Notes under the pieces: model-generated | Seen by the model: the letters and a program-made list of their open reading frames with translations, nothing else | What the model was told of the DNA's origin: nothing | The model's database searches: none | Shown: one piece after another, positions 20,759 to 35,867 of the stretch | Numbering within the stretch: position 1 is the first letter of the stretch | Layout of the letters: every line of letters starts with the position of its first letter | Virus record (IMG/VR): IMGVR_UViG_3300046318_000520 | Location: 1 to 64,000 of that record | Strand: one strand, 5' to 3' | DNA from: a virus | Length of the DNA stretch: 64,000 nucleotides | Translations under genes and position numbers: made by a program

Positions 20759-21118
20759 ATGAAACTATTTTCAACAGTAAAACTTTCTACTTACAGTTGC
20801 CAGTTTACAATCATGGTAACCGATGAACTAATTCAACAAGTTAATGCTGTTTATAAAAAACACAAACTTAATGCTGAGTTTGATATACCGGCAGAAGGTG
20901 TGATGGTTTCACCTACTATGAGTCACTACTATATAATCATAGACGAGGACTGTCTCTCTCACAATACAATAGCCCATGAAGCTTTTCACACAGTGAACAG
21001 GATTATGACAGACCGGGACATACATGATGAGGAATCAGGAGCGTGGTTATCCGGACATATTGCAAGTGTTATTTACAAGTTTTTAGACAAGAAGAAGTTA
21101 CAAATAAAACATGGCTGA
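20759..21118 (+). CDS. Small zincin-like metalloprotein
   Basis: TIAHEAFH (HExxH, 20975-20989) followed by DEESGAW, which supplies a third-ligand Glu. Confidence 0.7.
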   Translation: MKLFSTVKLSTYSCQFTIMVTDELIQQVNAVYKKHKLNAEFDIPAEGVMVSPTMSHYYIIIDEDCLSHNTIAHEAFHTVNRIMTDRDIHDEESGAWLSGHIASVIYKFLDKKKLQIKHG

Positions 21119-24100
21119 GCAATCACAAAATCCAGGGACGGTGACCAACACCTTTACTAAGGGTATGGTCAAAGACTTAAATGAAACTTTCCAACCGGAA
21201 GGGATGTGGACTCATGCCCGCAATGCCGTAAATAATTCTCATGAAGGGCAGATGGGTGTAATTGGTAATGAACCTGCCAATCTTAAGTGCGTACAACTTC
21301 CCTATACATTAATAGGCGTTATTAGTTTGAGAGAAGGAGAGTGGGCTATTTTTACCACTGATGATATTAACTCTGAGATAGGAATTTTTAATGAACTTAA
21401 GTGCACTTATACCAAGGTTGTCAATGATGCATGTCTTTCTTTTAAAAAGTCCTACCTGATTACAGGTGTTTCCCGTAATAGGTTTGACTGTGAAACAGTG
21501 CTCTATTGGGATGACGGGCTTAACCCAAGCAGGTATATGGATGTTCATAAACCTCCATTCAAATATACAGATAAGATAGTAGACGGTTGTATTAACCGCA
21601 CCTATAGCACTCAGCTTGATTGTGAGAAAATCAGGCTGGCTCCGTTGCTCAGTCACCCGTGCCTGGAGCTTTCTAAAGGTAAAGGAGCCGGTACACTGGC
21701 TAATGGATCCTACCAGGTATGCATGGCCTACACTATTAATCAAAACCGTATATCTGATTATATTGGGCTTTCCAATATACAGTCTATATTCTCACATCAG
21801 AATCTTGGGGGTGCCCTGGAAATAAAAGTTCAGAGTGTAGATGTTGACTTTGACGAGTTTGAATTGATAATTATTTCTACTGTTAATGCACAGACCGTTG
21901 CTAAAAGACTGGGTTATTATAATACCATCCAGGGAACCATATACATTGACACCATTTCTCCGGAGCTTATAACCGTTCCGCTAAGCCTTGTTTCTTTAAG
22001 GACAGAGCCTGTAGAAAAAAGTGATGCCATGTACCAGGTAAATAACTACCTGCTAAGACTGGGTACTTATTCTAATTTTCAATTTAACTACCAGAAGCAG
22101 GCTAACAGTATCCGTACCAAATGGCAGGCTGTACAGTATCCTGCTAACTTTTATTACAAAGGCGGTAATAATGCATCCTATCTTAGGGATGAGCAATATT
22201 CCTTTTTTATTCGTTGGATATATAATACAGGCAGCCGTTCTGCAAGTTTTCATATTCCTGGACGTAGTTCTTTTCCTGATGAACTTACACCAGTTATAGG
22301 TGGAGATGCTTTTGAGACATCTGATCCGGAGTCTGCTGAACAGAAAAAACTTTGGCAGGTACAAAATACAGCAACCATTGATAGCCTTGCTTCCAAAGTT
22401 TTAAAAGACGGTGGCGTTGTAATAGCATCAGGTAAGATGGCTTATTGGGAAAGTACGGAACGTTATCCTGCAGACCGTCCTGATATATGGGGTGATCTGT
22501 GCGGTAAACCTATCCGTCATCATAAGTTTCCTGATGAAACCAAAGATGAAATTCTTAATCACTATAATACAGATGGTCAGAATATTGTTTTGATGGGTGT
22601 AAGTTTTGAAAACATCACACATCCTTTGGACAATACAGGCAAACCGATTACTTCTATTGTTGGTTATGAAATACTCAGAGGATCCAGGGAAGGTAACAAG
22701 TCTATCATAGCTAAAGGTCTCATGAACAACATGAGAGAGTATAACATTCCGGGAAACACAACTGTTGAAGGCCTCTATCAGAACTATCCTTATAACGATC
22801 TTAATGCTGATTACTATCTTACATCAGATCAGTCTATACTAGATGTCAAACTTAAAAACATAACGGATCCTGAAAATCCTGATTTTAATATTGATGACAC
22901 GGATGATGATGGTAATGTTGACGGAGAAACCAGAAAACAGGCTAAGGCCAGGCTGAAAGCACAAAGAAACAAACTTAAAGAAGGTGACAGTTCACCTGGT
23001 GATGTAAACCTTTCTTTTCCTTTATCCAAATACCGTAAAGATTATTTCTCATTTCATAGTCCTGATACCACATTTACACAACCCTTTCTTGGTATCAACG
23101 AGGTAAAAATTTACCAGGAAGTATACGGTGAATCTGTTGGTAAGTTTGTCACTCCATACAAGCATCCTAAGTTTAAGACCGTAACAAACTTTGCAGCTAT
23201 ATTTAGCAGTGTAATATCTACCATTGCTGCTATTGGAAACACTATAAGCATTCTTGCCCAGGATAGCAACATCACTTTACAAGGAACAGATAAGCTACCG
23301 TTTACCAAGAAGCTTACCTTGACTAAGGTGCCTAACCACAGTGTGGCAGCAAGTGCTTTTGGTACAGGAGTGACTGTACCTAATCCTGCTATTGTGGCAA
23401 TAAATACCGTGATAGGTGTTTACAATGGTGTTGCAGCAGTTGCCATGACCTTTATAGAATCTCAGGCAATAGGTGAACAGCTTATGAATATTATTTACGG
23501 TATGATTCCCAGGCGTCAGAATGCTTTGCAATATGACAGCTATGGATTTTATAATCAAAGCCGTATTAATAACCTGGACAACCGCAGATTTAAAATAGAT
23601 AACGCTTTATATGTAGGGCCTAATCAGCATTCTTTTGATACCAAGTATGTTATTAATAACTTATTTCGTTCAAACTTTGTTGCCTTAAAACTAGGTAGTG
23701 ATGTGACAGATCCTGTAAACCCGGACAATAGCCGTTTTAGAATCGGTGAAAAGGGCGGGGCCTTAAATACACCATACAAAAGTAAAATCTCAGGATACTA
23801 TGGTTCACTAAAAGTGAGTATACCATCCCAGTATGGTCAGCTGGAAAGCATAAAGCAGGTTCCTATTTCTGATTGCATTCATCCTGCAACTAATCCTGAC
23901 ACTAAATATTCAACAGAAATACTCTTTGGTGGTGACACTTATATTAACCGCTTTACAGAAAAGAACTCTTTCTTTTTCTTTAATTCCTGGCTGATGGGTG
24001 AACCGGATGAAGCAGAGACAGACTACAGGGATTATGTAAATGTAGCCTATCCTCGTTTCTGGATAGATTCCAACCGTCAGAGCTTTAAATTATTTACCAA

Positions 24101-25817
24101 CGCTTCTAACTTTCGTCACCTGGATGAACGTGAAAGCTCTGTGTTTTTTGTAAGCAAGGGATATTTTTATCTGTTTAACAGTGGTGTGCGTGACTTCTTT
24201 GTAGAGAGTGAGATCAACCTGGCCCAGCGTGACTGGGAAGAGGACATAAGTAAAAGACACTATGATCCAAATAACTTTGTTGATTATGAGAGCATGTTCC
24301 GCTCCGATATAATCCGCAGTGGAAACTATTATAAGTACGACTATTCACTGAGTGCATCCAGGCTTTTTAATAACTTTTCTTCATGGGGAACAATGCTTCC
24401 CAGGGATTATGATCCTAAGATTGCAGATACCTGTTATATATACAAGCCTAATAATGTTGTCTATTCTCTGCCCCAGGAACTGGAGCTTAAGAAAGATAAC
24501 TGGAGAATATTCTTAGCCAATAACTATAAAGACTTTGTAAGCCGTGTTACGTCCATTAAGTCTGTAAACAAAACAGGTGCTTTGTTTATGATGAAAAGCA
24601 AAAGTCCATTCCAGTTTATGGGTGTGGACCAGCTGCAGACTGATGCCGGTACAAAGATAACTATTGGGGACGGTGGGCTTTTTAATCAGCCGTTGCAAAG
24701 TATAGTGAATGCAGACGATAGTTTTGAGTATGCTTCATGTCAGAACAGATATGCTGTACTTGGAACAACCTATGGTGTGTTCTGGGTTAGCCAGAACCAG
24801 GGTAAGGTTTTTAACTATGCCGGCCAGATAAATGAAATCTCCAAGGACGGTATGAAATGGTGGTTTGCCAACTACCTGCCTAGTGAACTTTTAAAAGTGT
24901 ATCCTGACTATCCCTTGTATGATAATCCTGTAAAGGGTGTGGGTGTGCAGATGATCTATGATAACACAAATGAAATTATATACATATCAAAAAAGGATTA
25001 TAAACCTATCTTCAAAGATCTATTGTACGATGACGGAGGTTTCTACAAATACGTCAATGCAGTCAAAACCTATTTTGACTTTAACAGTGCAGCTTTTGAA
25101 AACGCTTCTTGGACTATAAGCTACGACCCTAAGATTAAAAGCTGGATATCTTTCCATGACTGGAAACCCACCTTTGTTATTCCCGGCAAGAATCACTTTA
25201 TGTCTGTTAATACGGACAGTATTTGGAAACACAATGAACGCTGTGATCTGTTCTGTAACTATTATGACAAGAGTTATCCCTTTGATATAGAGTTTGTATC
25301 AGCCACAGGTCAGTCAGTGAATTCAGTGAGAAACATTGAGTACTTGCTGGAGACATACAAATATCATAATAACTGCAGGGATAAGTTCCATGTGCTGGAT
25401 GCTAACTTTGATCAGGCACTCATCTACAACTCAGAGCAGATTTCAGGTATACTGGAGCTGGAGCTTAAGAGTAAAACCAATCCTGTAGCATTGCTTGCCT
25501 ATCCTCAGGTCAGGACACAGTCTATTGGAATTAATTTCTCTAAAGAGGAAAACAAATACCGGTTCAACCAGTTCTGGGATATTACTAAAAACAGGGGAGA
25601 GTTTGACGCATCTGTAAACATTCCGATGTTTAATACATCTGCCAATGGGTATGAGTACCAGATCAACCCACAGTATGTTAACTATAATAAAATCAGTCTT
25701 GAGCGTAAGAAGTTCCGCCATCATATAAACAAAGTCTTTTTGCGTAAGTATAGTTCAGGCAACCTAAAGTTTTTGTTTAAAATTTCTAACCAGAAGATCC
25801 TAACATCACCCAGATAA
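21111..25817 (+). CDS. Tail muzzle/stabilisation protein (P22 gp10-like, crAss Tstab)
   Basis: 1568 aa. N-terminal NTFTKGMVKD...ARNA, WDDGLNPSRY, FGGDTYINRF and WTISYD...WISFHDW beta-propeller motifs. It follows the ring genes. Confidence 0.85.
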   Translation: MAEQSQNPGTVTNTFTKGMVKDLNETFQPEGMWTHARNAVNNSHEGQMGVIGNEPANLKCVQLPYTLIGVISLREGEWAIFTTDDINSEIGIFNELKCTYTKVVNDACLSFKKSYLITGVSRNRFDCETVLYWDDGLNPSRYMDVHKPPFKYTDKIVDGCINRTYSTQLDCEKIRLAPLLSHPCLELSKGKGAGTLANGSYQVCMAYTINQNRISDYIGLSNIQSIFSHQNLGGALEIKVQSVDVDFDEFELIIISTVNAQTVAKRLGYYNTIQGTIYIDTISPELITVPLSLVSLRTEPVEKSDAMYQVNNYLLRLGTYSNFQFNYQKQANSIRTKWQAVQYPANFYYKGGNNASYLRDEQYSFFIRWIYNTGSRSASFHIPGRSSFPDELTPVIGGDAFETSDPESAEQKKLWQVQNTATIDSLASKVLKDGGVVIASGKMAYWESTERYPADRPDIWGDLCGKPIRHHKFPDETKDEILNHYNTDGQNIVLMGVSFENITHPLDNTGKPITSIVGYEILRGSREGNKSIIAKGLMNNMREYNIPGNTTVEGLYQNYPYNDLNADYYLTSDQSILDVKLKNITDPENPDFNIDDTDDDGNVDGETRKQAKARLKAQRNKLKEGDSSPGDVNLSFPLSKYRKDYFSFHSPDTTFTQPFLGINEVKIYQEVYGESVGKFVTPYKHPKFKTVTNFAAIFSSVISTIAAIGNTISILAQDSNITLQGTDKLPFTKKLTLTKVPNHSVAASAFGTGVTVPNPAIVAINTVIGVYNGVAAVAMTFIESQAIGEQLMNIIYGMIPRRQNALQYDSYGFYNQSRINNLDNRRFKIDNALYVGPNQHSFDTKYVINNLFRSNFVALKLGSDVTDPVNPDNSRFRIGEKGGALNTPYKSKISGYYGSLKVSIPSQYGQLESIKQVPISDCIHPATNPDTKYSTEILFGGDTYINRFTEKNSFFFFNSWLMGEPDEAETDYRDYVNVAYPRFWIDSNRQSFKLFTNASNFRHLDERESSVFFVSKGYFYLFNSGVRDFFVESEINLAQRDWEEDISKRHYDPNNFVDYESMFRSDIIRSGNYYKYDYSLSASRLFNNFSSWGTMLPRDYDPKIADTCYIYKPNNVVYSLPQELELKKDNWRIFLANNYKDFVSRVTSIKSVNKTGALFMMKSKSPFQFMGVDQLQTDAGTKITIGDGGLFNQPLQSIVNADDSFEYASCQNRYAVLGTTYGVFWVSQNQGKVFNYAGQINEISKDGMKWWFANYLPSELLKVYPDYPLYDNPVKGVGVQMIYDNTNEIIYISKKDYKPIFKDLLYDDGGFYKYVNAVKTYFDFNSAAFENASWTISYDPKIKSWISFHDWKPTFVIPGKNHFMSVNTDSIWKHNERCDLFCNYYDKSYPFDIEFVSATGQSVNSVRNIEYLLETYKYHNNCRDKFHVLDANFDQALIYNSEQISGILELELKSKTNPVALLAYPQVRTQSIGINFSKEENKYRFNQFWDITKNRGEFDASVNIPMFNTSANGYEYQINPQYVNYNKISLERKKFRHHINKVFLRKYSSGNLKFLFKISNQKILTSPR

Positions 25818-28800
25818 TGAACAAGCTTTTACAACACCTTATTGATTCAGGAGATGTATCTCATAAAGTCTTGCCTTCACTTATGAAGTTCCAGATGAAA
25901 GGAGAGGTACCTGCTAGTTTAAAACCCATACCCAGGTCTGTTGGAGATATTGCCGGAATGAAAAAACCGGTTATACAGATGACAGCTGAAGAAGCTAAAA
26001 AGCGTCAGCTTCAAATGATGGCTCAACAAGCATTAGCTAATCAGGCAACAGTAACATCACCATTAATGACATCTATCCCAATGGATAGAAATGCTATCAT
26101 AGAAAGAAACAGACAGCATGCTGCAGCAACTGGTAAAAGGTTTAATCCTAACACAGGAGCAGTGACTCAGTTGTTATCTGATAACACAGATAGAACAATG
26201 AGACGTGCACAAGAAAACATAGTAGATCCTATGTTAGAATTAGAGATGGCTTTATCTGGTGCAAAGTTTGTTGGTCAAGGTTTAAAAGCTGCCGGTAAAT
26301 TTGCCCTAAATAAAAGTGCTAATAAAGTTTCTGGAATATCAAATAGTGTTCCTGCAAATAGTGCAAACAGAGTTAACTGGGAGTTAAGTGTACCTGATGC
26401 TCCAACAGCCATTAAAATTAGAGAGGGAGTAGGTAATGCTAATGCAACAATTCAGAATGAAGGTTCAGGTATATATAGTGAATTGTCTAGTCCTGAAGGA
26501 ATGAGAAGACTAAAAGAACAGTTTAGAAAAGTTGATCCTAATTATACAGAACAGCAACTTCAATGGTTAGTATCTAGCAGGCTTGGTGAGGTACATGATG
26601 CAATTAGGTTAAATAAAAACAGATATTTTTTAGAACACGGTGAAGGAGCTGCTGGTTCACGTACAGAAAATATGTTAAGGGACTTTTATCCTTTTCAGAA
26701 TGCTCATTTTAGTAGTTACAATCCTTATCCTGTTCAAACCATGGATGCACCACTATCGTTGTTTCCTAATAAACCAGTAAGTCAATTAAATACATCTGGG
26801 CAATATAAACAATTTAATCTGTTTAAAACTAATGGTAGAGAGGTTTTTGTTGATCCACAAAATAAAGCAGGAACAATTGCACTAGGTGAGGGTTTAGAAA
26901 ATAACCTTAGAGTGTTAGACCATGAAATAGGACACGGCATACAGAAAGGAGGCAGTATGCCTATTGATGAAGAGTTGTTACAGTTACTAAAACCTAAGTC
27001 TGCTGCGGATCGTATCTGGAATAAAAAGTTACCTAAACAGTCTATAGGTGATTTAGATTACTTTACAAATTCTGGTGGTAGAACAATTAAGAATGAGCCT
27101 TACGCTTTTATGTCAGAACAAAGAAGGCGTATGATGGAAGATGGTGTGTTAGCTCACAGATATGATAAAGTAACACCACTAAAACTTTTAAAAGCCAGGT
27201 TCAATGCTTCATATCTTCCTGACAGAAACTTTTTAGAAGGAACCAGATTGATTAGATTTACCCCACCATGGAAATATGGAAAGCTTGCTAAAATAATGAA
27301 TACAGCCCCAGCTGCTGTACCTGCTATGGGAGCTGCTACTTATCTTGGAACACAAGGTAATGATCAAGAAATAAAACAAGAAGGTGGTCAGTATAAGGGA
27401 CCAAGTATAGTAGACTTTCTAGCTACCAAAGGTTACTCTGGAAAAAAATCTTTTAGAAAAGAACTTGCTGAAAAATATGGAGTGGAAGGTTATAATTTTT
27501 CTGCTAAAAAGAATACAGAGCTAATGAATAGAATACAGGAGAATGATGATCTCCTGGAAACCTATAAACAAACTATGCAACCCATTCCTGTTCAACGTAT
27601 GATGGAAATGGAAAGGCAGCAAGAGTTAAGACGCAGTGCACCTCAAAATACCAATCCTGTAGTACAAGCTAGGGATATTCCACAAGTTGAAAATAATGTG
27701 CCACAGAATCGTGGTGAAATTAAACGTAATCAACAAGTATTTCCAGTACCTAGCAACAATCAGGAGCTACAAATGTATCAGCCTCCAAGATGGAATACAA
27801 CACCTCAACCAAGTACTACTGCATCAACACCTGGTATAAATCCTAACACTGTTTGGAATACTTCAGGTAGAAATCCTAGAGTGGTTAGACCACAAAGCAG
27901 CAGTCCTCTTCCTGGTATTGATCCAAATATGATTTGGAATACAACTGGCAGAAGTCCTAGAGTTATTACAGAACAACAAGGTAATTCATCTTTACCCAAT
28001 ATTGATCCTAATGTTATATGGAATAGATCAGGTGTTAGTCCTAGAGTTGTAAATACACAACCGAATCCTAACTTACCAACTAAAAGCCAAGATTGGGGAT
28101 ATGATAAAGTTCCTAATGCAGAATCATTTTTTCCTTTTGAAACATTTCCTGGATATCCTGATCAACCAGCTAAAGCTCCGGTTGCTCAACCAGCTGCAGC
28201 TCCTGACTGGCGGTATGTACAACCAGGAAAAGCACTTCCTCAAGATCCTTTTCAGCAGTTTCCTGCTTATCCTGAATCTAAAGTAAAACAGTTACCTAAG
28301 AAAAATACAGCACAAGCCGCTGCTATTAATAGGACAAGTCCTGTTAACTATTCTATGGTATCAGATCCTTCTGCATTTAATGATTTGGTTAGTCTTACTG
28401 CCAACTATGCAAAGAGGCAGTATTACAAAATGTTTGGAGATGATGATAGCCAGGTAAGTGTACTTAACCAACCTGTTGTAAATACACCTAAAAAACTTCC
28501 AGGTAACAAACCTAGTCAAGTTGTTATACCGCCTCAAGAACTTCCTCCTGCTATCATTAAAGGAAACAACCTATGGGATGAAGGTAACAGGGTATATCAT
28601 GCTCCGGAAATTATTGATCTAAACCGTACTAAATGGGGACATAGAAATAGGGGAGACAGGACCGAGGTAAATTCTGCAGGTTACGAGTTTGGTGTCATTG
28701 ACGATCCTAAGAATCCAAATAGAATTAAAAGTACTAAAAGCATAAATCTTGATGATTCCGCTACATATGTCGGTATTGACAAGGAAGGTAAGATGAAAGT

Positions 28801-31096
28801 GGGTACCGGAAAGATGTTTAGAGACAAGGAATACTTTGTTGGTAGATTCAACTCACTTAATGATGTAACAGGTTTTAAAAGAAAAGCATCTGGTGATTAT
28901 GATCTTATAGATGCAAGTGAAGCTGCTGCTAATCATGTTAGTCCTCAGATGGTAAATGAAAATGGGGAGACCAGGTCTGCTGGTCTATTGATAAAGAAAA
29001 ACTCTCCCAATAACTATAACCTATACGGCAATATAACAGGAGGGCATATCATTGTTACTTCTCCTGATTATAAAAAGCAAATTCTTATCAGTGGTAGTCT
29101 TACCGATGTAGATACTGCCATGAACAAGTTTATGAAAGATAACAAGCTTACAAAGGTAAATTTTGTACAGCTGGATAACGGATCTTTTAGCAGAAACTTT
29201 AAAACAGCTGATAACAAAATTACTGCTAATGACTGGCAAAAGTTTGATGATAGAAATACATCAGGTGGTAGCGGTTTCTTTTTACAGGGATCGGGTATGA
29301 AAAATGGCGGCCCTATTGTAGATCAGCGTGGTCAATGGGCTCATCCTGGTAAAGTGACCAGGATACCTTCTAATCAAATCACTATGCAGGGAGTACCGTA
29401 TCCTGTATATGGTGTAGGGAATAACGGCAAGTCTCAAATGATGTACCCAGGACAAGACTATAGTTTTGGTGGAGCATCTTATGTAGATGAATATCCAATG
29501 ATGCAAAAGGGCGGTAGTCTACCTGCTTATCAAATGAGAGGACAGGTTGCACCTACTTATACAGATAATACAAGAGTAGTAAGTCCAATAAGAAAAAATA
29601 ATTTTCCAATAGGTATTGTAAATGAACCTGATACTTTAAAATATCTTAAAGTTAAAGATGATCCACTTTGGGGTGATCCATATAAGTTTTTGATGAATTG
29701 GTATAATGATCCGGCAACTAAAAAAAGATTAGAAGCAGATAATCTTCCAGAAAGACCAATGACTCATGCATTAAATCAAAAAAGATATGATAATTATGAG
29801 GACTGGTATTTAGCAACAAAGGATAAAAATAAAAAGGATGCTCAAACAAAATATGGAGATAATTTTTCTAAAGTTCGTGAATACACTAATAAACTTGATA
29901 AATATACAGAAACTGAGTTTGACCACCTTAGTACAACAACTAATGGTTTTCACAATCCTTGGGACTCACTTGTAGCTCTGAATACAAGTTTTATTAATAG
30001 GACTAAAGACGAGCAAATGCGTACTGCAGTCCATGAACTAACTCATGCTACAGGTTTAGATTATTATTATAAAAATTACTTTACAGAGAATAAACCTAAA
30101 AACCCAGGCAGTGAAGCAGGTGATTATTTTAATAGTAATCCTGAAGAAATATATCCACGTATTCAAGATATCAGATTTCAGATGTGGAATAAAAGTAAAA
30201 TAGCACCTGGTACAAAAATTACCCCACAGATGTTAGAAGGTTATAATAATAATAATACTATAAACTTACGAGAGTATTATTCTCCAGAGGAACTAGCTAA
30301 AATAATGAATGAGGTAGCATCTTCATCTGGTAATAAAAAACCAATGGCTGAAGCTAAGTATGGTGGTGGATTACTTAGTAAAACAGTAAGCTGTTCTAGC
30401 TGTGGTCATTCCTGGAAATCTGTAGACGGTGGTGGAGATCCTCTGCATTGTCACAAGTGTGGTGGTATGGTAAAGATGCAAGTAGGTGGTCAGCAAAATT
30501 TATGGAATACTAACAGAACTCAATGGGTGGATAGCGTCAACAACGCTAACATGGTTAAGAACTTTGTACAGAGAGAGTACCTAAAGAACGGACCTAGTAT
30601 GCAAATTCCTGGCAAACCAGGTAGAAGTACTCATTACATGGAGGAATCTGACGGTATGGTTTATCCTACTGTCGTACAATTTCCTGGTCAACAGGGTGTA
30701 CAATATCTGAACAAGTCTGATAAAAATGGAGCTTATAACTATGCAAAAAAGACCGGTGAGTTTATAAAGTTCCCTACTGTAGAACAAGCTTTATGGTATG
30801 CTAGTGATGGTTATAAAACTGGTACTGGTGTAACAATAGGTAATAAAAAAAGTGGCGGACAACATGGTGGACTAGATCGTTGGTTTGCAGAAAAGTGGGT
30901 GGATGTAAAGACAGGTAAAGCATGTGGCAGACAAGAGGGTGAAAGTAGAGCTGGTTACCCGGCATGTCGTCCTTCCAGAAGAGTATCATCCCAGACACCA
31001 AAGACTTCTTCAGAAATGAGTGCTGCTGAAAAAGCTAAGTTTAAAAGAAACAAGACAGGCAGTGAACGCATAAACTATAATCACAAAAGAAATTAA
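25817..31096 (+). CDS. Modular virion cargo polyprotein A (two zincins, DUF3597-like, Zn-ribbon, DUF5872-like half)
   Basis: 1759 aa with HEIGH (26921) and HELTH (30032), SIVDFL...RKELAEKYG...N, CxxC..CxxC and GLDRWFAEKW modules. The modules are separated by xxGG linkers. Confidence 0.75.
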   Translation: MNKLLQHLIDSGDVSHKVLPSLMKFQMKGEVPASLKPIPRSVGDIAGMKKPVIQMTAEEAKKRQLQMMAQQALANQATVTSPLMTSIPMDRNAIIERNRQHAAATGKRFNPNTGAVTQLLSDNTDRTMRRAQENIVDPMLELEMALSGAKFVGQGLKAAGKFALNKSANKVSGISNSVPANSANRVNWELSVPDAPTAIKIREGVGNANATIQNEGSGIYSELSSPEGMRRLKEQFRKVDPNYTEQQLQWLVSSRLGEVHDAIRLNKNRYFLEHGEGAAGSRTENMLRDFYPFQNAHFSSYNPYPVQTMDAPLSLFPNKPVSQLNTSGQYKQFNLFKTNGREVFVDPQNKAGTIALGEGLENNLRVLDHEIGHGIQKGGSMPIDEELLQLLKPKSAADRIWNKKLPKQSIGDLDYFTNSGGRTIKNEPYAFMSEQRRRMMEDGVLAHRYDKVTPLKLLKARFNASYLPDRNFLEGTRLIRFTPPWKYGKLAKIMNTAPAAVPAMGAATYLGTQGNDQEIKQEGGQYKGPSIVDFLATKGYSGKKSFRKELAEKYGVEGYNFSAKKNTELMNRIQENDDLLETYKQTMQPIPVQRMMEMERQQELRRSAPQNTNPVVQARDIPQVENNVPQNRGEIKRNQQVFPVPSNNQELQMYQPPRWNTTPQPSTTASTPGINPNTVWNTSGRNPRVVRPQSSSPLPGIDPNMIWNTTGRSPRVITEQQGNSSLPNIDPNVIWNRSGVSPRVVNTQPNPNLPTKSQDWGYDKVPNAESFFPFETFPGYPDQPAKAPVAQPAAAPDWRYVQPGKALPQDPFQQFPAYPESKVKQLPKKNTAQAAAINRTSPVNYSMVSDPSAFNDLVSLTANYAKRQYYKMFGDDDSQVSVLNQPVVNTPKKLPGNKPSQVVIPPQELPPAIIKGNNLWDEGNRVYHAPEIIDLNRTKWGHRNRGDRTEVNSAGYEFGVIDDPKNPNRIKSTKSINLDDSATYVGIDKEGKMKVGTGKMFRDKEYFVGRFNSLNDVTGFKRKASGDYDLIDASEAAANHVSPQMVNENGETRSAGLLIKKNSPNNYNLYGNITGGHIIVTSPDYKKQILISGSLTDVDTAMNKFMKDNKLTKVNFVQLDNGSFSRNFKTADNKITANDWQKFDDRNTSGGSGFFLQGSGMKNGGPIVDQRGQWAHPGKVTRIPSNQITMQGVPYPVYGVGNNGKSQMMYPGQDYSFGGASYVDEYPMMQKGGSLPAYQMRGQVAPTYTDNTRVVSPIRKNNFPIGIVNEPDTLKYLKVKDDPLWGDPYKFLMNWYNDPATKKRLEADNLPERPMTHALNQKRYDNYEDWYLATKDKNKKDAQTKYGDNFSKVREYTNKLDKYTETEFDHLSTTTNGFHNPWDSLVALNTSFINRTKDEQMRTAVHELTHATGLDYYYKNYFTENKPKNPGSEAGDYFNSNPEEIYPRIQDIRFQMWNKSKIAPGTKITPQMLEGYNNNNTINLREYYSPEELAKIMNEVASSSGNKKPMAEAKYGGGLLSKTVSCSSCGHSWKSVDGGGDPLHCHKCGGMVKMQVGGQQNLWNTNRTQWVDSVNNANMVKNFVQREYLKNGPSMQIPGKPGRSTHYMEESDGMVYPTVVQFPGQQGVQYLNKSDKNGAYNYAKKTGEFIKFPTVEQALWYASDGYKTGTGVTIGNKKSGGQHGGLDRWFAEKWVDVKTGKACGRQEGESRAGYPACRPSRRVSSQTPKTSSEMSAAEKAKFKRNKTGSERINYNHKRN
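27830..28051 (+). repeat. Three tandem ~27-aa coding repeats
   Basis: PGINPNTVWNTSGRNPRVV / PGIDPNMIWNTTGRSPRVI / PNIDPNVIWNRSGVSPRVV start at 27830, 27911 and 27995. Confidence 0.9.
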
Positions 31097-31107
31097 GAGT
31101 ATATACT

Positions 31108-33813
31108 ATGGCAAACAAACCTAATAACCCCAGCTTGTGGTCCCGTGCTAAGTCTTTAGCCAGGCAGAAATTTGATGTATATCCTTCTGCTTATGCTAAC
31201 GGCTGGGCCGCTAAGTGGTATAAAGGTAAAGGTGGTACCTGGCGTAAAGCCGAGTATGGCATGGAAGTAATGGAAGAAGGTGGTGTCCCTGATAATGAAG
31301 GCTTCAACGCTCTTCCTGAAAGGGTTCAGCAAATGATTATTAGCCGTATGGAACAAGGTGGAGAAAAGATGCCACCTGAAATAGCTCGTGCCCGTTTTGC
31401 AGCAGCAGGAAACATGGATCAAATGTCGGACTATGGTTATGCCTATGGTGGTATGACCTATCCTTTTATGGCAGATGGTGGTGAACCTAATGGTGGAATG
31501 GCTCTTGGTCAGATGGCAGCTGTACAGGATAAGATGAATAAGCTTTTACAGTTTGTTAAACCTGATGATAATCTGGATCCCTGGATAGCTTCTAAGCTGG
31601 CTGTTATGGATCATTCTGCTGATGCTATTGCTGACTACATGATGTACAACCCTGAAGCTCAGCAAGAAGATCAAATGATGGCTAATGGTGGATATGTAGT
31701 GAGCAGAAGCAATGACAGAAAAGGAAAGACCCATAAAGTAACAGGGCCTGATGGCACAGTAAAATACTTTGGTGATTCTAAACTAGGTCAGCATCCTAAA
31801 GATCCGGGAAGAAAAAAAGCGTTCTATGCCAGGCATAAAAAGAACTTAGCCGGTAACCCTTACTTTAGAGCATTTGCCAGAAAGACTTGGGAAGAAGGTG
31901 GTGAGATAGAAGAAATGAAAAATGGCGGAAGCACTTATGCTAATGGAGTGTGGTATCAAGAAGGCGGTCAAAACCAAGACTCAATTGTAGAAAACATAAC
32001 TGAGATATTTGATCCTACAGGTATTAGTTCATGGGATGATGTTTATCGTTCTTATAAGAAAAGTGGTTTTTCACCAGAAACTAATTTAGAAATATTTGGA
32101 GCAATACCTTTATTAGGAAAAGTAGCTAAAGCAGGTCAGTATTTAGGAAAACTGGGTAAAGCTGCTGCCGTTACTGCCAGGCAAAAAAACAATGTAAAAG
32201 CTGTATCTAAAGGTTTACAGGCTGCACCATATATTGGTCGTGGTACGGATGGTGCTCAAGCAGCACAGTCATTACCTTCTGCTCCCATAATGCCAAATTT
32301 TGGTATGGATAATATGCCTTTTGGTATGGGTGGGTATATTCCAGATTTATCTAAATATCAGTCTAAAGGTCAGGTGGATGAGAATGATACAGATTATATA
32401 CAAAGTATGTTTAGCATGGAGCAGCCTCAGAAGATGCCTGCTTTAAATCCTATTCCAGGCAGCATGCCTCCACAGGTAAACTATAATGGAAAGCAACAGG
32501 CTTACCTATCTGATATGTACGGATCTGGTATGATGACTTTTGATAACAAGCAGCAGATGGACCTTACAGGTCAGGGGGTAAATAACTATGCCTGGGATTC
32601 TTACGGTCAAAATCAAAGTGCATCTGGTAAGACTGCAGCAATGAGAGAAGCTGATAAGCCGTTTCAGATTGAGCAGCAAGAGGCTATTAATCCTATATAT
32701 GGAGATGTAGAAAAATTACAAGGTATGCTTAATGTTGCTTCCAGAAAAGATCTAAAATCATCTGTTCAAGAGTTTAATAATACATATGGCTCAGACATGA
32801 AGGTGCCTGGTTCTTATATGGGAGCGGATGGTAAAAAGGCTACCAGGAGAATAAACAACCTTTCTGATTTTCTGAGAAAGGGTATAAGCACCGCTTCTGG
32901 TGTTACGGATGTTTTCAACATGAGAAAAGGTAAAAGAGAACAGGAATGGAGAGACCGTAACCTGGGATCAACCAGTTCACTATATCCTGTTGTTCCTGAG
33001 AACATGTCTGGAAACAGAGGGGATTATGTTGTCACCGGCAGTCGGTATGGAGATTTTCGTCCTGATGAAAAAACAGTAAACCTGGGACAGTATACCGGTA
33101 AGTTTTACCCACAGTCAAATATGCAATTTGGTGGTGGTATAATAGATGAACAACTTTCTTTACCAGAAGAACTTATGCAGGATCCAGCAGCTTCAATGGA
33201 AATACCAGAGGAGTCTAACGCAGCTTATGAAAATAATACAACGCCTGTAAATTTTAATCTGACTAAGGACTATAAAGAATACGCTACTATTGCCAACAAC
33301 TTTATAAAACAAGTTAATCCTGATACAGATATTACAGGTGAAATGCTTGCCTACGGGGCTCAGATGGCAGAAAAGAAATATGGTAAAACAGTACCGGTAG
33401 AACTTGCATTAGCTCAGTTGCAACAAGAAGGGTATCTGGCTAAAACAAATAAACCAAACCGTCCTCAAAGAACCAAGAACCCATTTAATGTAGGTAATAC
33501 AGATGATGGAAGCAACATACCACATAATGATCTGCAGAGTGGTATTGATAGTTACTATAAATTAATGGCTACTAATTATCTGTCTACAAGAACACCTGAT
33601 CAGCTACTGCAAAATTTTGTAAATAAAAGCGGAAACAGGTATGCCTCAGCTGAGAATTATGAGTCCAGTCTCAGAAACATAATAGCAAAGATTAATAAAA
33701 CCCGTCAGACTAAGTTTGAGGAAGGCGGCTTTGTAGAGGGAGATGTCTATGAACTATCCGAAGAACAGATAAGGTCTATACTTTCCACTGGTGGGAATGT
33801 AGAATTTTTGTAA
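31108..33813 (+). CDS. Modular virion cargo polyprotein B with C-terminal glucosaminidase/lysozyme-like domain
   Basis: 901 aa with 11 Phi-x-x-GG motifs. C-terminal ELALAQLQQEG...NPFNVG...GIDSYYKLM...RYASAENY resembles GH73-type peptidoglycan hydrolases. Confidence 0.75.
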   Translation: MANKPNNPSLWSRAKSLARQKFDVYPSAYANGWAAKWYKGKGGTWRKAEYGMEVMEEGGVPDNEGFNALPERVQQMIISRMEQGGEKMPPEIARARFAAAGNMDQMSDYGYAYGGMTYPFMADGGEPNGGMALGQMAAVQDKMNKLLQFVKPDDNLDPWIASKLAVMDHSADAIADYMMYNPEAQQEDQMMANGGYVVSRSNDRKGKTHKVTGPDGTVKYFGDSKLGQHPKDPGRKKAFYARHKKNLAGNPYFRAFARKTWEEGGEIEEMKNGGSTYANGVWYQEGGQNQDSIVENITEIFDPTGISSWDDVYRSYKKSGFSPETNLEIFGAIPLLGKVAKAGQYLGKLGKAAAVTARQKNNVKAVSKGLQAAPYIGRGTDGAQAAQSLPSAPIMPNFGMDNMPFGMGGYIPDLSKYQSKGQVDENDTDYIQSMFSMEQPQKMPALNPIPGSMPPQVNYNGKQQAYLSDMYGSGMMTFDNKQQMDLTGQGVNNYAWDSYGQNQSASGKTAAMREADKPFQIEQQEAINPIYGDVEKLQGMLNVASRKDLKSSVQEFNNTYGSDMKVPGSYMGADGKKATRRINNLSDFLRKGISTASGVTDVFNMRKGKREQEWRDRNLGSTSSLYPVVPENMSGNRGDYVVTGSRYGDFRPDEKTVNLGQYTGKFYPQSNMQFGGGIIDEQLSLPEELMQDPAASMEIPEESNAAYENNTTPVNFNLTKDYKEYATIANNFIKQVNPDTDITGEMLAYGAQMAEKKYGKTVPVELALAQLQQEGYLAKTNKPNRPQRTKNPFNVGNTDDGSNIPHNDLQSGIDSYYKLMATNYLSTRTPDQLLQNFVNKSGNRYASAENYESSLRNIIAKINKTRQTKFEEGGFVEGDVYELSEEQIRSILSTGGNVEFL

Positions 33814-33833
33814 ATTTACAATATAAATAACGT

Positions 33834-35807
33834 ATGAAAACTTTCAAAGTTAGAATCACTAAATCCCCTGTAGAGCAGATGGCATACGGCGGTCAGTCCG
33901 GTTACGGGCTGGATCTCGGAAGAAGCAAGCTCTACACTGATATGGCTGAACTTCCTTCTGAAGGTGTAAGTTCTACAATGTCTGAAGAAGATGTATCTAA
34001 TGACGAGTATGTACTGGAAGCAGAAGGTGGAGAAACTATTGTACGCCCTGATGGTTCTCATTTTAATATTAACGGACCCAGGCATACGGCTAACGGGGTA
34101 AAACTTACAAACGAACAAGCTCCGGAAGGTTCTTTTATATTTTCTGATACTAAGAAAATGCGTATGAGTGGCCCGATGCTTTCCATGTTTGGCAAATCAG
34201 AGGCTTCTAAAAACAAGTATACTCCGGCTGAGCTGGCTAAGCAATACCCTACCAACAAGTATAGAGCTTTGGTAGATGACCCTAATGTAGACCCGCTTAC
34301 AAAAAAGACAGCTAACATGATGATTAAAAACAATATGACCAAGCTTGCACAGCTTGCCCTGGCTCAGGAGGGTATGAAAGGATTTCCTTCTGGTATTCCT
34401 GATATTGCCCAGAGCATCATGCCTATGGGAAACAGTCAGGAGATGGCTGAAGCAATGTATGGTGGGTATTACGCAGATGGTGGTGAACTTGACTTATACC
34501 AGGATAAGGGTCAGGTAACTCCTAAAAAACCTCAGTTAGTTGATAAAAAAGATATTGCCAGATATGAAGCTGATGGCTATAAAAAAGTTGGTCCAAATCT
34601 GTGGAGAAAACAAGGTAGTACCATAGAAACAAAAGATCCTATTATAACCAAAGGATCATCTACTACAAAAACTTCTCCGGGAATACCGGCACAAAAGGAT
34701 CAGTATAAAGGTCCAAAAATGTCTAACAGTGACTGGTTAAAGTTTTTACAAACTTCACAGGGTCAAAAGTACAAACAAAAATATATTACAGGCACACCAG
34801 GGGTTACTGAGAATGTTGTCATACCTGATAAAACAAATTGTCCTGACGGTTATACCCTAAATCCTACCACAGGTGTTTGTGAAAAAACTAATCCATACTC
34901 AGAAGAGATTACTATTAAAGATTCTTTAACACCAGGAAATCCTTCTAATCCTGTTTATCCAAACTATACATCAGGCAGGCTTCCTTTCTTTGGTTCCAGC
35001 TTGGGTGTTGCTCCATATAAGGAACAGTTCTACGGAGCTGACATGGACGCCATGATACCGGAGCCTACTTTTTATGATCCTGAGCGTGAGCTGGCGGCTA
35101 ATGCTGAGCAGGCTAACATAACACAGGGCTATGCAGCTAACTTTAGCAATCCCCAGGCTTTTATGGCCAATGCATCAGCCGTTCAGGGTAATGCCAGCAA
35201 GGCTGCTGCAGATACGTTAGGTAGATATAATAATCTAAATGTAGGTGTTGCCAATCAGTTTAGCCCGCTACAGACAGATATTATGAACAAGGTGATGGCT
35301 TATAGGGCAGACAGGGCTGATAAGCTTTTCTTTAATAATCAGCAGGGAAATAAGATGGATAAAAACAACCTGCGTCAATGGATGAATAACATAGAAAAGT
35401 ATAGAATAAATGACTATGTTACCAAGACCGGCATTGGTATGGAAAATGCAACCAATCCATACTTTGATCTGGTGCCTGGCAGAGGACAGATGAACATGCA
35501 AATGAAACCGGGAACTGACTGGTACAGTGCTGTAACAGGACAGAGTGCAGCTACTCCTGCAAGTTCAGAGCAAGATCTTGCTGAATATCTTAAAGCTGCT
35601 AAAGAATATGAATCACAAGGTATAAAGGAAAGCGTATTTATGCCTGCCCTGAAAAGAAGATTTCCAGGAATGTTTACAACTGTAACTGCCAACTCCGGCA
35701 GGGGTAATCAAATGGCTAACTATGCAAACCCTTACATGAATCTTTTAAACATGTACGGGGCCAGGGCAGCTTCTCCACTTAGCATGATAGATGCAGATTA
35801 CGAGTAA
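33834..35807 (+). CDS. Virion cargo protein C
   Basis: 657 aa. Contains an EAEGGE...GPRHTANGV...FIFSD module as seen in crAss-like cargo proteins, an Ala/Gln/Asn-rich helical C-terminal half, and xxGG motifs. Confidence 0.7.
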   Translation: MKTFKVRITKSPVEQMAYGGQSGYGLDLGRSKLYTDMAELPSEGVSSTMSEEDVSNDEYVLEAEGGETIVRPDGSHFNINGPRHTANGVKLTNEQAPEGSFIFSDTKKMRMSGPMLSMFGKSEASKNKYTPAELAKQYPTNKYRALVDDPNVDPLTKKTANMMIKNNMTKLAQLALAQEGMKGFPSGIPDIAQSIMPMGNSQEMAEAMYGGYYADGGELDLYQDKGQVTPKKPQLVDKKDIARYEADGYKKVGPNLWRKQGSTIETKDPIITKGSSTTKTSPGIPAQKDQYKGPKMSNSDWLKFLQTSQGQKYKQKYITGTPGVTENVVIPDKTNCPDGYTLNPTTGVCEKTNPYSEEITIKDSLTPGNPSNPVYPNYTSGRLPFFGSSLGVAPYKEQFYGADMDAMIPEPTFYDPERELAANAEQANITQGYAANFSNPQAFMANASAVQGNASKAAADTLGRYNNLNVGVANQFSPLQTDIMNKVMAYRADRADKLFFNNQQGNKMDKNNLRQWMNNIEKYRINDYVTKTGIGMENATNPYFDLVPGRGQMNMQMKPGTDWYSAVTGQSAATPASSEQDLAEYLKAAKEYESQGIKESVFMPALKRRFPGMFTTVTANSGRGNQMANYANPYMNLLNMYGARAASPLSMIDADYE

Positions 35808-35867
35808 ACCTTAAAAGTTTAGTTTTAAACTTTTAATATTTTAAGTTATATTATATTATAGACCTAT
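35805..35867 (+). promoter_or_regulatory. Bipartite regulatory element: TAAAC-N7-GTTTA box plus late-promoter motif, copy 2
   Basis: TAAACCTTAAAAGTTTA at 35805 and TTATATTATATTATAGACCTAT at 35846, overlapping the ATG at 35866. Confidence 0.6.

Follow-up and report, generated by a model that had tools for sequence, protein, structure and literature searches.

Processing of viral polyproteins at Gly-Gly is known for the adenovirus protease (adenain) and for ASFV pS273R, and the internal proteins of phage T4 carry an N-terminal capsid-targeting sequence that is removed by the prohead protease. In Bacteroides phage crAss001, two cargo proteins, C1 (gp45) and C2 (gp46), are stored in capsid and tail and are thought to be ejected partly unfolded, according to the sections of Bayfield et al. 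2023 (PMC10172136) considered here. The polyvalent proteins of phages and conjugative elements, as treated in the portions of Iyer, Burroughs, Anand, de Souza and Aravind 2017 (PMC5512222) used in this study, resemble the proteins analysed below in being multi-domain, encoded in late or virion gene neighbourhoods, delivered with the DNA and extensively mosaic, in having lysozyme-type wall hydrolase domains and in an embedded zincin-like metallopeptidase, whose predicted role is to divide the protein by cleavage into its functional units. Processing of phage polyproteins by embedded or packaged zincins is likewise predicted in the part of Drobysheva et al. (bioRxiv 10.1101/2020.03.07.982082) considered here, where fused virion RNA-polymerase polyproteins (phi14:2) are described as 'likely cleaved' and have a zincin domain that may act in activation or on peptidoglycan. 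This statement concerns the giant protein and not small-module cargo strings; the 4,791-aa neighbour of the cargo genes analysed here is of the same kind (DFDID, HEAFH).

The window (64,000 nucleotides, positions 1 to 64,000 of IMG/VR record IMGVR_UViG_3300046318_000520) belongs to a 127.7 kb phage genome, estimated to be 99% complete, that contains ORFs A-C and 132 other ORFs. The best explanation of its source is an uncultured, distant crAss-like podophage, with ORFs A-C as its ejected cargo proteins. Its terminase is about 25% identical to terminases of crAss-like and Flavobacterium FPSV phages, and its gene order, from the muzzle-like gene through three variable ORFs and the conserved 1,049-aa ORF to the giant with DFDID, corresponds to that of crAss001 gp44, gp45, gp46 and gp47. 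The initial annotation had named ORFs A-C as cargo, and their position agrees with this, being the slot of crAss-like virion cargo genes, which in crAss001 holds gp45 and gp46 between the muzzle gene and the RNA-polymerase genes. The muzzle-like protein is about 26% identical, over 89-99% of its length, to proteins of Leptolyngbya phage Lbo-JY46 and Cellulophaga phi4:1 (gp042); the record annotation gives gp042 as a virion protein from MS/MS. The features of the locus are given below, with motifs counted in the strict class [MFYW]xxGG because the class [MYFWAK] used earlier is loose.

20759..21118, plus strand: candidate small zinc metallopeptidase, 119 aa, HEAFH at 20975-20989, directly upstream of the muzzle-like gene
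21111..25817, plus strand: virion structural protein, 1,568 aa, muzzle-like position (phrog_37948 and phrog_15100, 'virion structural protein'); upstream flank of the cargo block, two motifs in 1,568 aa
25817..31096, plus strand: ORF A, mosaic cargo protein, 1,759 aa
Order within ORF A: N-terminal leader (aa 1-~33), HEIGH module (26921-26935), KQEGG, peptidoglycan-peptidase-like 75-aa module, three Pro/Asn-rich repeats, MKNGG, 68-aa 'GQWAHPG' module, MQKGG, HELTH module (30032-30046), AKYGG, zinc ribbon, MQVGG, 123-aa module, KKSGG, C-terminal half of DUF5872 (30851-31057)
29297..29515, plus strand: example cassette in ORF A (aa 1161-1233), MKNGG with the 68-aa module and MQKGG
31108..33813, plus strand: ORF B, mosaic cargo protein, 901 aa, 11 [MFYW]xxGG
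Start and middle of ORF B: N-terminal half of DUF5872 (aa 5-50), linker cluster (aa 44-130), helical module (131-195), DUF5754-like module (196-265), low-confidence region (263-532)
33241-33717: GH73-like peptidoglycan hydrolase in ORF B, aa 712-870
33730-33810: end of ORF B, FEEGG and then the 27-aa C-terminal tail
33834..35807, plus strand: ORF C, more conserved cargo protein, 657 aa
33879-33893: MAYGG, the end of the N-terminal 20-aa peptide of ORF C
35866..39015, plus strand: conserved downstream flank of the cargo (related-locus comparison), 1,049 aa, 0 motifs
39039..53414, plus strand: fused giant, 4,791 aa, zincin-like HEAFH at 44949-44963 and DFDID, a motif of crAss-like virion RNA polymerases, at 49545-49559

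Comparative analysis revealed that ORFs A and B are strings of small self-folding modules exchanged among thousands of related phage proteins, and that each module terminates in the linker motif [M/Y/F/W]-x-x-G-G. Related proteins at E <= 1e-3 form 2,493 representative clusters with modules in every order, and modules of 40-120 aa recur across other phages in other orders, in other ORFs and between unrelated flanks, with GG at both ends. The 68-aa cassette module has GG at both ends in 13 of 13 homologous rows (60-83% identity, unrelated flanks), and the motif stays with the module end, one module ending in EYPMMQxGG in all 13 homologous rows. Across homologous loci, modules were gained, lost and moved between ORFs at or adjoining the GG motif, as the initial annotation had expected of a cassette system. 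Its description of all three ORFs as module strings holds for the mosaics A and B, where shuffled modules and motif borders were found, and not for ORF C, most of whose homologues align over the full length (in one case residues 1-654, with 42% identity). The ORF breaks also vary by phage, ORF B being one ORF here and two in many loci and the A/B junction being fused in locus L014; since the breaks differ between phages, covalent linkage between modules is dispensable.

The motif falls at module borders about twice as often as expected, which bears out its reported placement there. In ORF B, 9 of 31 border clusters have a motif no more than 6 aa away, compared with 4.29 expected (a value reached by 47 of 5,000 permutations), and in ORF A, 7 of 30 lie near any GG (2.77 expected; 67 of 5,000). 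Among 150 database representatives, the internal borders close to a motif number 934 of 3,364, versus 428 expected. Mapping of the motifs on the AlphaFold model of ORF B placed 9 of the 11 motif GGs in segments with pLDDT<50 and the remaining two at confidence dips (residues 194 and 873); the motifs are thus predicted to lie in disordered linkers, outside folded domains.

All 20 pentapeptides listed in the initial annotation were found in the ORFs to which they had been assigned (six in A, 11 in B and three in C). In the strict class, ORFs A, B and C contain 4, 11 and 2 motifs, a total of 17 in 3,317 aa (5.13 per 1,000 aa) versus 23 in the remaining 36,308 aa of the proteome (0.63 per 1,000 aa), and MxxGG alone occurs 10 times in ORFs A-C versus five times in the other 132 ORFs. 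The neighbours are motif-poor, as had been noted, with one motif in the 4,791-aa protein and none in the 1,518-aa protein. Taken singly, the shuffle significance is strong for ORF B only: within-protein shuffles gave a mean of 1.32 and reached the observed 11 in 0 of 500 trials, compared with 18 of 500 for ORF A (4 observed, mean 1.25) and 58 of 500 for ORF C (2 observed, mean 0.59).

Enrichment in all three ORFs is supported by sequence comparison across the family, in a sample of homologues from 38 related viral contigs or loci in which near-duplicate loci were kept. Motif density was 4.51 per 1,000 aa in A-type (24 ORFs), 10.37 in B-type (56 ORFs) and 4.71 in C-type homologues (33 ORFs), compared with 0.85, 0.13 and 0.31 in homologues of three flanking proteins; the 150 representatives gave 9.2. 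Without a preset residue class, M/F/Y/W occupied the third position before GG in 364 of 781 distinct GG contexts of cargo homologues and in 32 of 242 of flank homologues, against a background of about 13% in both sets. This position is the most informative one (relative entropy 0.69 bits versus 0.24 in flank proteins), with methionine enriched 6.3-fold and tyrosine 3.0-fold.

Analysis of the termini revealed that each polypeptide starts with a short conserved leader and that B-type proteins end in a tail of about 27 residues, found only at the free C-terminus after a GG linker (55 of 55 and 42 of 42 regular-expression matches). The ORF C leader, MKTFKVRITKSPVEQMAYGG followed by Q, is conserved; at aa 207-217 this ORF has AMYGG and YADGG in tandem, and its C-terminal region is weakly similar (E 0.001, two-sequence comparison) to gp040 of Cellulophaga phi4:1, which MS/MS places in the virion. 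The leader recalls the T4 internal proteins, which are likewise packaged and ejected and begin with a short conserved peptide ahead of a candidate cut site; the motif differs, however, no S77/S78 prohead protease was found in this genome, and the ORF C leader is also internal where the ORF is fused to upstream modules.

crAss001 gp45 is also GG-rich (20 in 842 aa), and a short peptide at its N-terminus precedes FDTGG (residue 17). Its other two motifs, FAEGG (260) and FAYGG (559), directly follow the resolved segments 214-245 and 425-552. Pairwise similarity between ORF C and the crAss001 cargo was not detectable (BLASTP E 4.3). The phage analysed here has three cargo proteins instead of two, and its motif density rises to 12 per 1,000 aa (ORF B), compared with about 3.6 in gp45 and zero in gp46. 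Two ORFs at the cargo position of the crAss-like Flavobacterium phage FPSV-D12 contain 0 motifs. The sections of PMC10172136 considered make no mention of module shuffling, a terminal tail or a motif; those of PMC5512222 name no cleavage or linker motif, and 'linker' and 'glycine' occur 0 times in them. In contrast to the anti-restriction, nuclease and ADP-ribosyltransferase domains of the latter survey, most modules of this phage are very small and virus-specific, such as the DUF5872 halves and a DUF5754-like fold, and the HExxH modules are at most candidate members of its MPTase family.

The initial annotation had drawn an analogy with adenain and pS273R, with which the locus shares Gly-Gly after a hydrophobic residue at borders of virion-protein units. 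This analogy fails, since the hydrophobic residue lies one position further upstream (Phi-x-x-G-G versus the consensus Phi-x-G-G as quoted) and no C5, C48 or C39 protease gene was found in the phage, which has a bacterial host. The suggested phage-encoded Ulp1/C5/C48-like or prohead protease was not found: a six-frame Pfam search of the 99%-complete genome (E <= 1) returned no Peptidase_C5, C48 (Ulp1) or C39, and S78, S77 and ClpP prohead proteases gave 0 matches at E <= 1. The HExxH proteins are the sole protease candidates found, namely the zincin domain of the giant, the upstream 119-aa protein and two modules in ORF A, and a virion-associated zinc metalloprotease of this kind may cut the strings at the motif, either within the capsid or once they have been ejected. 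The 119-aa protein lies at the same position in 18 of 20 related loci with upstream DNA (tblastn), with H73, E74, H77, D90 and E92 invariant in 47 sequences and an AlphaFold pLDDT of 96.5; it has no Pfam match, its fold comparison returned no known peptidase (best Z 5.3), and it is missing from one related genome that is 100% complete and has retained 7.6 motifs per 1,000 aa in its arrays. The HEAFH segment of the giant is kept in that genome (32% identity, E 8.5e-38), and the giant is a candidate trans-acting protease packaged with the cargo.

Putative cleavage at the motif is given somewhat less than an even chance. Proline directly after the motif is depleted (3.3% versus 6.0% background), which favours it, as do the crAss-like cargo slot, the family-wide enrichment of the motif and its place at borders and in linkers, the dispensable linkage between modules, the terminal peptides, the HExxH candidates and the predicted zincin precedents. 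GG-Pro junctions are common ahead of the C-terminal tail, which counts against it, as do the protease search that returned no match, the 119-aa protein's missing fold match and its absence from the complete genome, the motif's presence at none of the likely junctions of the giant, the in-array HExxH modules in only 9 of 21 complete loci and the zincin matches of the ORF A modules below Pfam cut-offs. A further point against it is that zincins are not known to cleave behind Gly-Gly, their cuts lying more often before a hydrophobic residue. A loading or docking signal, the alternative in the initial annotation, is about as likely as putative cleavage. The strings may remain uncut, like beads on a string, with GG as a flexible joint that lets small modules thread singly through portal and tail and the Met or aromatic residue as a putative weak sticker binding the capsid interior, portal or tail barrel repeatedly; encapsulins (HK97-fold shells) use short cargo-loading peptides that this arrangement would resemble. 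We regard this hinge and docking role as a serious, if still tentative, explanation. It accords with the predicted disorder around the motifs, with a genome in which no dedicated GG protease was found, with methionine enrichment at other positions upstream of GG (2.3-2.4-fold) and with tandem clustering, 21.8% of successive motifs being 10 aa or less apart versus 12.1% at random; given this spacing, full cleavage would release many peptides of 5-16 residues. The placement of two of the three gp45 motifs after structured segments also fits, as does gp45 itself, modelled in the parts of PMC10172136 considered as one chain spanning tail and capsid, separate parts of which are bound inside the tail barrel and at the portal; 'cleav' and 'proteoly' are absent from those parts, and both points count against cleavage. 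However, one loading signal per polypeptide would suffice and conserved terminal peptides are already present, ORFs split and fuse freely at the motif, from which linkage is seen to be dispensable, and the proline depletion is left over.

An unlikely explanation is that the motif is a by-product of recombination, a tolerated module end with no specific reader (protease or receptor): modules would carry their own C-terminal linker, and only joints in flexible GG linkers would survive selection. The massive shuffling and the motif staying with the module end agree with this, but a simple hinge would not require Met or Tyr to be conserved at the third position before GG, the same signature occurs on unrelated modules, leaders and tails, and the mixed Gly codons (GGT 21, GGC 8, GGA 4, GGG 1) indicate that there is no DNA-level recombination site. 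It is improbable, being a pure analogy, that a periplasmic or cytoplasmic host protease would cut after ejection, or that an exposed C-terminal GG would mimic ubiquitin-like proteins as a substrate or decoy for bacterial ubiquitin-like conjugation systems; for this speak only the likeness between a C-terminal ...xxGG and ubiquitin-like tails and the genome search that returned no matching protease. Accidental pentapeptides in Gly-rich, Met-rich low-complexity sequence would fit the singly weak or non-significant shuffles of ORFs A and C. This origin was rejected as extremely improbable in view of the ORF B shuffles, the enrichment kept over 38 loci and 150 representatives, the positional preference (47% versus 13%) and the GG invariant at both ends of aligned modules.

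Overall, the architecture as a whole, a modular cargo with linker motifs, leaders and tails, is very probable. Under cleavage at the motif, the terminal peptides would bring the strings into the capsid as polyproteins, and the separate payloads set free would be the GH73-like wall hydrolase, the HExxH peptidase-like modules, the zinc ribbon and a number of small virus-specific domains.

Analysis of this uncultured crAss-like phage centred on three adjacent candidate cargo genes (ORFs A, B and C) and on the five-residue motif [MFYW]xxGG within them. They lie downstream of a muzzle-like gene and upstream of a virion RNA-polymerase gene, as the cargo genes of crAss001 do.

Features of the locus (window positions; strand where noted)
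13647-14201 and 14867-15337, +: two small fibronectin type III proteins (Pfam fn3, E 2.3e-9 and 1e-4) in the tail/structural block
17259-18572, +: SbcD-like 'DNA repair exonuclease' (phrog_704, E 3e-45) amid structural genes
20759-21118, +: 119-aa HExxH protein, directly upstream of the muzzle-like gene
21111-25817: muzzle-like gene, 1,568 aa
25817-31096: ORF A, 1,759 aa
31108-33813: ORF B, 901 aa
33834-35807: ORF C, 657 aa
39039-53414, +: giant, a single ORF of 4,791 aa with a zincin-like HEAFH (aa 1971) fused with a DFDID RNA-polymerase motif (aa 3503)
53443-57999, +: 1,518-aa protein after the giant, with an exonuclease-like region (phrog_298, E 1.4e-7)

The genome encodes a terminase, a portal and a major head protein and is estimated to be 99% complete; its terminase shares ~25% identity with the terminases of crAss-like, Flavobacterium FPSV and Cellulophaga phages. 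An IHF/HU-like DNA-binding protein (phrog_858) also occurs among the head genes (genome 124274-124690). The 1,568-aa protein is a PHROG-type 'virion structural protein'; over 89-99% of its length it shares ~26% identity with proteins from Leptolyngbya phage Lbo-JY46 and Cellulophaga phage phi4:1. The phi4:1 counterpart and the next three proteins, gp040-gp042 at the corresponding positions among these four, carry virion-protein annotations based on MS/MS. Since a muzzle-like gene lies upstream and a giant bearing the DFDID motif that characterises crAss-like virion RNA polymerases lies downstream, ORFs A-C are placed in the slot of crAss001 gp45/gp46. The crAss001 cargo protein gp45, in the same slot, has a weaker form of the motif, with the copies FDTGG, FAEGG and FAYGG, but no detectable homology to ORF C (BLASTP E 4.3, pairwise comparison only). 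ORF C found no match by tblastn among 50,697 phage records, and a weak link (E 0.001) was found to phi4:1 gp040.

All 20 pentapeptides listed in the initial annotation were found in ORFs A-C, and the three ORFs themselves were confirmed. The class used there for the first position, [MYFWAK], is generous, and the stricter [MFYW] was used for counts. The motif occurs four times in ORF A, 11 times in ORF B and twice in ORF C, giving 17 copies in 3,317 aa, and the 132 other called ORFs of the 127,703-bp genome hold 23 copies in 36,308 aa; MxxGG alone occurs 10 times in ORFs A-C against five in the other ORFs. When residues were permuted within each protein (500 shuffles), the count of ORF B was never reached (0/500; mean 1.32), while that of ORF A was reached in 18/500 (mean 1.25) and that of ORF C in 58/500 (mean 0.59). 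Within this single genome, strong significance is found for ORF B only. The neighbours are poor in the motif, as had been noticed, with one copy in the 4,791-aa protein and none in the 1,518-aa protein.

Scanning of viral contigs with ORF B identified 38 related loci with identical gene order, and the motif is kept in the homologues, its density being raised in the cargo-type ORFs.

Motif density in the 38 related loci (motifs per 1,000 aa; near-duplicate loci included)
A-type ORFs (n=24): 4.51
B-type ORFs (n=56): 10.37
C-type ORFs (n=33): 4.71
Homologues of three flank proteins (n=23, 26 and 15): 0.85, 0.13 and 0.31
All remaining ORFs of at least 100 aa (n=173): 0.40

When every GG was considered with no preset class, M/F/Y/W appeared three residues before GG in 364 of 781 distinct cargo-homologue contexts against 32 of 242 flank-homologue contexts. 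In the cargo homologues methionine is enriched 6.3-fold and tyrosine 3.0-fold at this position; the position after Met/Tyr favours Q, A, K or E and the following position favours Y, N or E. An exhaustive HMMER search with ORF B as query revealed 2,493 representative clusters at E <= 1e-3 (1,185 at <= 1e-10), and the best 150 of these 2,493 representatives contain 1,248 motifs in 135,763 aa (9.19 per 1,000). The motif is not universal in crAss-like phages: FPSV-D12 has none at the corresponding position, Lbo-JY46 has two and phi4:1 gp040 has four, namely FQAGG, YQNGG, FQIGG and FQSGG.

The motif uses all four glycine codons (GGT 21, GGC 8, GGA 4, GGG 1), so the signal lies at the protein level and not at the DNA level. 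A DNA-level signal was ruled out by these mixed codons together with the absence of Shine-Dalgarno-like GGAGG. Internal translation starts at the motif methionine were ruled out as a general cause, as Tyr, Phe and Trp replace Met. Tandem copies are common, for example YAYGG-MTYPFMADGG-EPNGG and WEEGG-EIEEMKNGG-STYANGVWYQEGG, and successive motifs are spaced by 10 aa or less in 21.8% of cases in representatives against 12.1% at random. Proline directly after the motif is halved (3.3% against a background of 6.0%). The motif is mostly internal to proteins, leaders (short conserved N-terminal peptides) accounting for only part of the occurrences.

The initial annotation described all three ORFs as strings of unrelated modules. 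This description proved right for ORFs A and B, which match related loci by BLAST in short, sharp, high-identity pieces whose order and host ORF vary. Residues 193-307 of ORF B are found within an A-type ORF in four of these loci (L016, L019, L021 and L024), ORF B is divided into two ORFs in many loci, and in L014 a single ORF runs from the end of A into the start of B. ORF C does not fit the description; it is a conserved protein whose homologues mostly align end to end. A 68-aa module at residues 1166-1233 of ORF A is represented by 13 homologous rows, each with GG directly before it and M-x-x-GG at its end, and the sequences outside the module are unrelated among the 13 rows. Modules starting at KQEGG, KKSGG and MANGG have the same pattern of GG at the ends with unrelated sequence outside.

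Border tests (borders near the motif, observed against expected; permutations that reach the observed count)
ORF B, border clusters <=6 aa from the motif: 9/31 against 4.29; 47/5,000 permutations
ORF A, any GG: 7/30 against 2.77; 67/5,000 permutations
ORF A, strict motif: 2/30 against 0.81; 936/5,000 permutations, not significant
ORF C, strict motif: 1/20 against 0.76; not significant
Best 150 representatives, internal borders: 934/3,364 against 428, these borders being non-independent events

The distribution of border-motif distances in the 150 representatives peaks at 0. Mapping of the motifs on predicted domains agreed with a linker position for most copies in ORF B. Built from a 75-row alignment, the AlphaFold2 model of ORF B (mean pLDDT 56) is confident at about 60-83, 89-108, 131-181, 195-262, 533-582, 712-870 and 875-900, and nine of the 11 motif GGs lie outside these stretches, in segments of pLDDT < 50 that make up 451 of 901 residues. 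Of the remaining two, the one at residue 194 borders a low-confidence segment and the one at residue 873 sits in a local drop in confidence.

Conserved peptides were found at the termini. A-type ORFs begin MNKLLQHI...LPGLQKMQKGG, ORF C begins MKTFKVRITKSPVEQMAYGG|Q and ORFs arising by a split begin MKIRITGKGLPKAQ. B-type proteins end in a tail of ~27 residues that follows a GG linker in the listed examples, in ORF B as FEEGG|FVEGDVYELSEEQIRSILSTGGNVEFL; a second tail type has the ending ...VTPEQLEQLRAQGYQFEII. All matches to a regular expression for the tail were C-terminal (55/55 in representatives and 42/42 in locus ORFs). The leader of ORF C gave seven N-terminal and three internal matches in representatives and 23 and nine in locus ORFs, the internal copies occurring where it is fused to upstream modules. 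A second short recurrent motif, L-P-x-x-Q-x-x-G-Q-V (forms YQMRGQV, YQSKGQV, YQDKGQV and LPKAQVGQ), comes after the GG motif or closes N-terminal leaders; it is present at aa 1236-1245 of ORF A, 415-425 of ORF B and 220-230 of ORF C and at many locus-ORF N-termini. Overall, there is good support for an architecture in which mosaic cargo strings have modules ending in a conserved linker motif and carry terminal peptides.

Several unrelated domains per polypeptide and a mosaic architecture, the hallmarks of polyvalent proteins, were both found in the cargo ORFs. Polyvalent proteins, as set out in PMC5512222, share the logic of delivered multi-domain proteins with embedded zincins, and the words 'linker' and 'glycine' do not occur in that paper. 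In the main text of the papers searched, neither the motif nor the terminal tail nor the 119-aa HExxH protein is described.

Among the module identities, DUF5872 was matched above its cut-off at aa 1679-1747 of ORF A (48.4 bits against 27.5), covering only profile positions 49-110, the C-terminal half. The N-terminal half (positions 1-45) matches ORF B aa 5-50 below the cut-off (17.5 bits). The two halves flank the ORF A stop and the ORF B start, which are separated by 11 nt, with their order reversed (window 30851-31057 and 31120-31257), and in L014 both are within a single ORF with the reversed order retained. Pfam DUF5872 may comprise two independent mini-modules. Residues 3-29 of ORF B (window 31114-31194) share 89% identity with the C-terminal end of a hypothetical protein found in Synechococcus phages Sf-CH8 and Sf-CH5 (L045, 1039-1644), both pieces ending ...WYKSKGGGW. 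This identity is unusually high for very different phages; the 27-residue stretch in two Synechococcus phages was the sole match of ORF B among phage records by tblastn.

ORF B 712-870 appears GH73-like from its predicted structure: its top Foldseek matches are GH73 enzymes (AtlE, LytB and FlgJ-type; probability 0.98, E 0.076), and Pfam Glucosaminidase matches positions 4-122 of 123 at 12.8 bits against a cut-off of 30.2 (E 0.2). The resemblance of the predicted structure of ORF B 194-265 to DUF5754 models (TM 0.72-0.75) is a lead only. DUF5872 and DUF5754 are mentioned in two papers on eukaryotic viruses. ORF A matches a PHROG of L-alanyl-D-glutamate peptidases at 517-618 and contains a four-Cys zinc ribbon. 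Three tandem Pro/Asn-rich repeats of ~27 aa also occur in ORF A (aa ~672-746; window ~27830-28054), namely PGINPNTVWNTSGRNPRVV, PGIDPNMIWNTTGRSPRVI and PNIDPNVIWNRSGVSPRVV. ORFs A and B had no match below E 0.26 among PDB sequences by phmmer, and the 10-kb region had none among phage records by megablast.

The initial annotation had likened the motif to the sites cut by the adenovirus and ASFV proteases and called for a search for a Ulp1/C5/C48-like or prohead protease. None was found: six-frame profile searches of the genome gave no match at E <= 1 for Peptidase_C48 and Peptidase_C5 (a very divergent protease could escape), for C39 peptidase, or for the S77, S78 and ClpP prohead proteases (PF03420, PF04586 and PF00574), and Pfam assigned no protease family to ten unassigned structural-region ORFs. 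The cleavage consensus of adenain, as quoted in the initial annotation, is (M/L/I)-x-G-G, with the hydrophobic residue two positions before GG, whereas the enriched position here is three before GG. The analogy fails on this position, and no protease that would fit it was found in these searches.

HExxH motifs occur in exactly three proteins of the genome, namely ORF A, the 119-aa protein and the giant. ORF A has two (HEIGH at 369 and HELTH at 1406), and its second half has sub-threshold Pfam matches to DUF6782 (E 0.03) and to Aspzincin_M35 (E 0.019, with 15.8 bits where the cut-off is 30); HExxH modules occur in the cargo arrays of only nine of 21 complete loci. The 119-aa protein is at the same place in 18 of the 20 loci having upstream DNA, and H73, E74, H77, D90 and E92 are invariant in 47 sequences. 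Its model is confident (pLDDT 96.5), and fold searches found neither a peptidase nor another clear fold (Foldseek best E 0.12; VIA-align best Z 5.3, to RsfS-like chains). Pfam gives no family for it, the Atlas points weakly to Peptidase_M78 (score 0.88, 19% of members), and a predicted complex with Zn and ORF B residues 96-135 was uninformative (score 0.02). The 100%-complete genome that contains the related locus L038 lacks this protein, and its arrays keep 7.6 motifs per 1,000 aa. The HEAFH segment of the giant is conserved in that genome (E 8.5e-38), and a 4,514-aa open frame with the same segment was seen in a related complete genome. Pfam gave no match to the giant or to its HEAFH region; the segment corresponds to the zincin domain named for RNA-polymerase-associated proteins in the phi14:2 preprint (bioRxiv 10.1101/2020.03.07.982082).

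What reads the motif was weighed against these results. Cleavage of the cargo strings at the motif, with a packaged zincin as candidate protease, has in our view somewhat less than an even chance. It is favoured by where the motif sits, flanking every mobile module on both sides, behind leaders and ahead of the tail, by payloads that differ in target, by ORFs that split and fuse freely at the motif and by the depletion of proline directly after it. Putative packaged zincins with HExxH are present, and such enzymes are predicted in published work to process phage polyproteins (PMC5512222; bioRxiv 10.1101/2020.03.07.982082). Against cleavage stand the missing protease of a matching class, the many tiny peptides that tandem motifs would give, and the frequent GG-Pro at tail junctions. 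For zincins, cuts ahead of a hydrophobic residue are more usual than cuts behind Gly-Gly, and if that preference were followed here the cut would fall before the motif Met/Tyr.

The neighbouring giant polyprotein also lacks such a motif; junctions in this 4,791-aa protein were tried as further sites and rejected, none of its 13 GG sites fitting. Moreover, crAss001 gp45 was modelled as an intact chain in PMC10172136. The motif might then be an uncleaved hinge or multivalent docking motif, the latter close to the repeated loading signal first proposed as the alternative to cutting, and we regard this as a tentative possibility of roughly one part in three. A functionless linker that merely tolerates recombination is an unlikely explanation of the same borders, and host-enzyme or ubiquitin-like ideas, together with chance, share the small probability that is left. 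If cleavage by a packaged zincin is nevertheless followed to its broadest form, a large uncultured crAss-like clade would possess a programmable system of cargo cassettes that is general in scope. Whatever small domain was set between [M/Y/F/W]xxGG linkers, in a polypeptide with the conserved N-terminal leader and an obligatory ~27-residue C-terminal tail, would be loaded into the capsid, cut free by the zincin and injected ahead of the DNA. Each phage would then deliver some 15-20 separate small effectors, swappable in evolution, several of them tiny 'DUF' domains of cyanophages and giant viruses; as a whole this scheme is doubtful.

The way in which tailed phages choose, load and release injected proteins is poorly understood, above all in the abundant crAss-like phages. 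This study indicates that the joints of predicted injected proteins are marked by a simple rule across thousands of relatives, namely a five-residue linker, a short leader and a strictly C-terminal tail, and that the predicted virion cargo modules include 'DUF' domains which are widespread and confined to viruses (DUF5872 and a DUF5754-like fold). The rule is clear and widespread and opens cargo loading and the proposed processing to testing. Should the linker be a cut site, it would reveal a new specificity of a phage maturation protease and provide a list of small effectors that are injected; should it be a hinge or docking motif, it would be a clue to the storage and tail threading of long protein strings. 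Either way, virion terminomics can test the question, and the motif offers a handle for detecting and analysing cargo proteins in metagenomic data.
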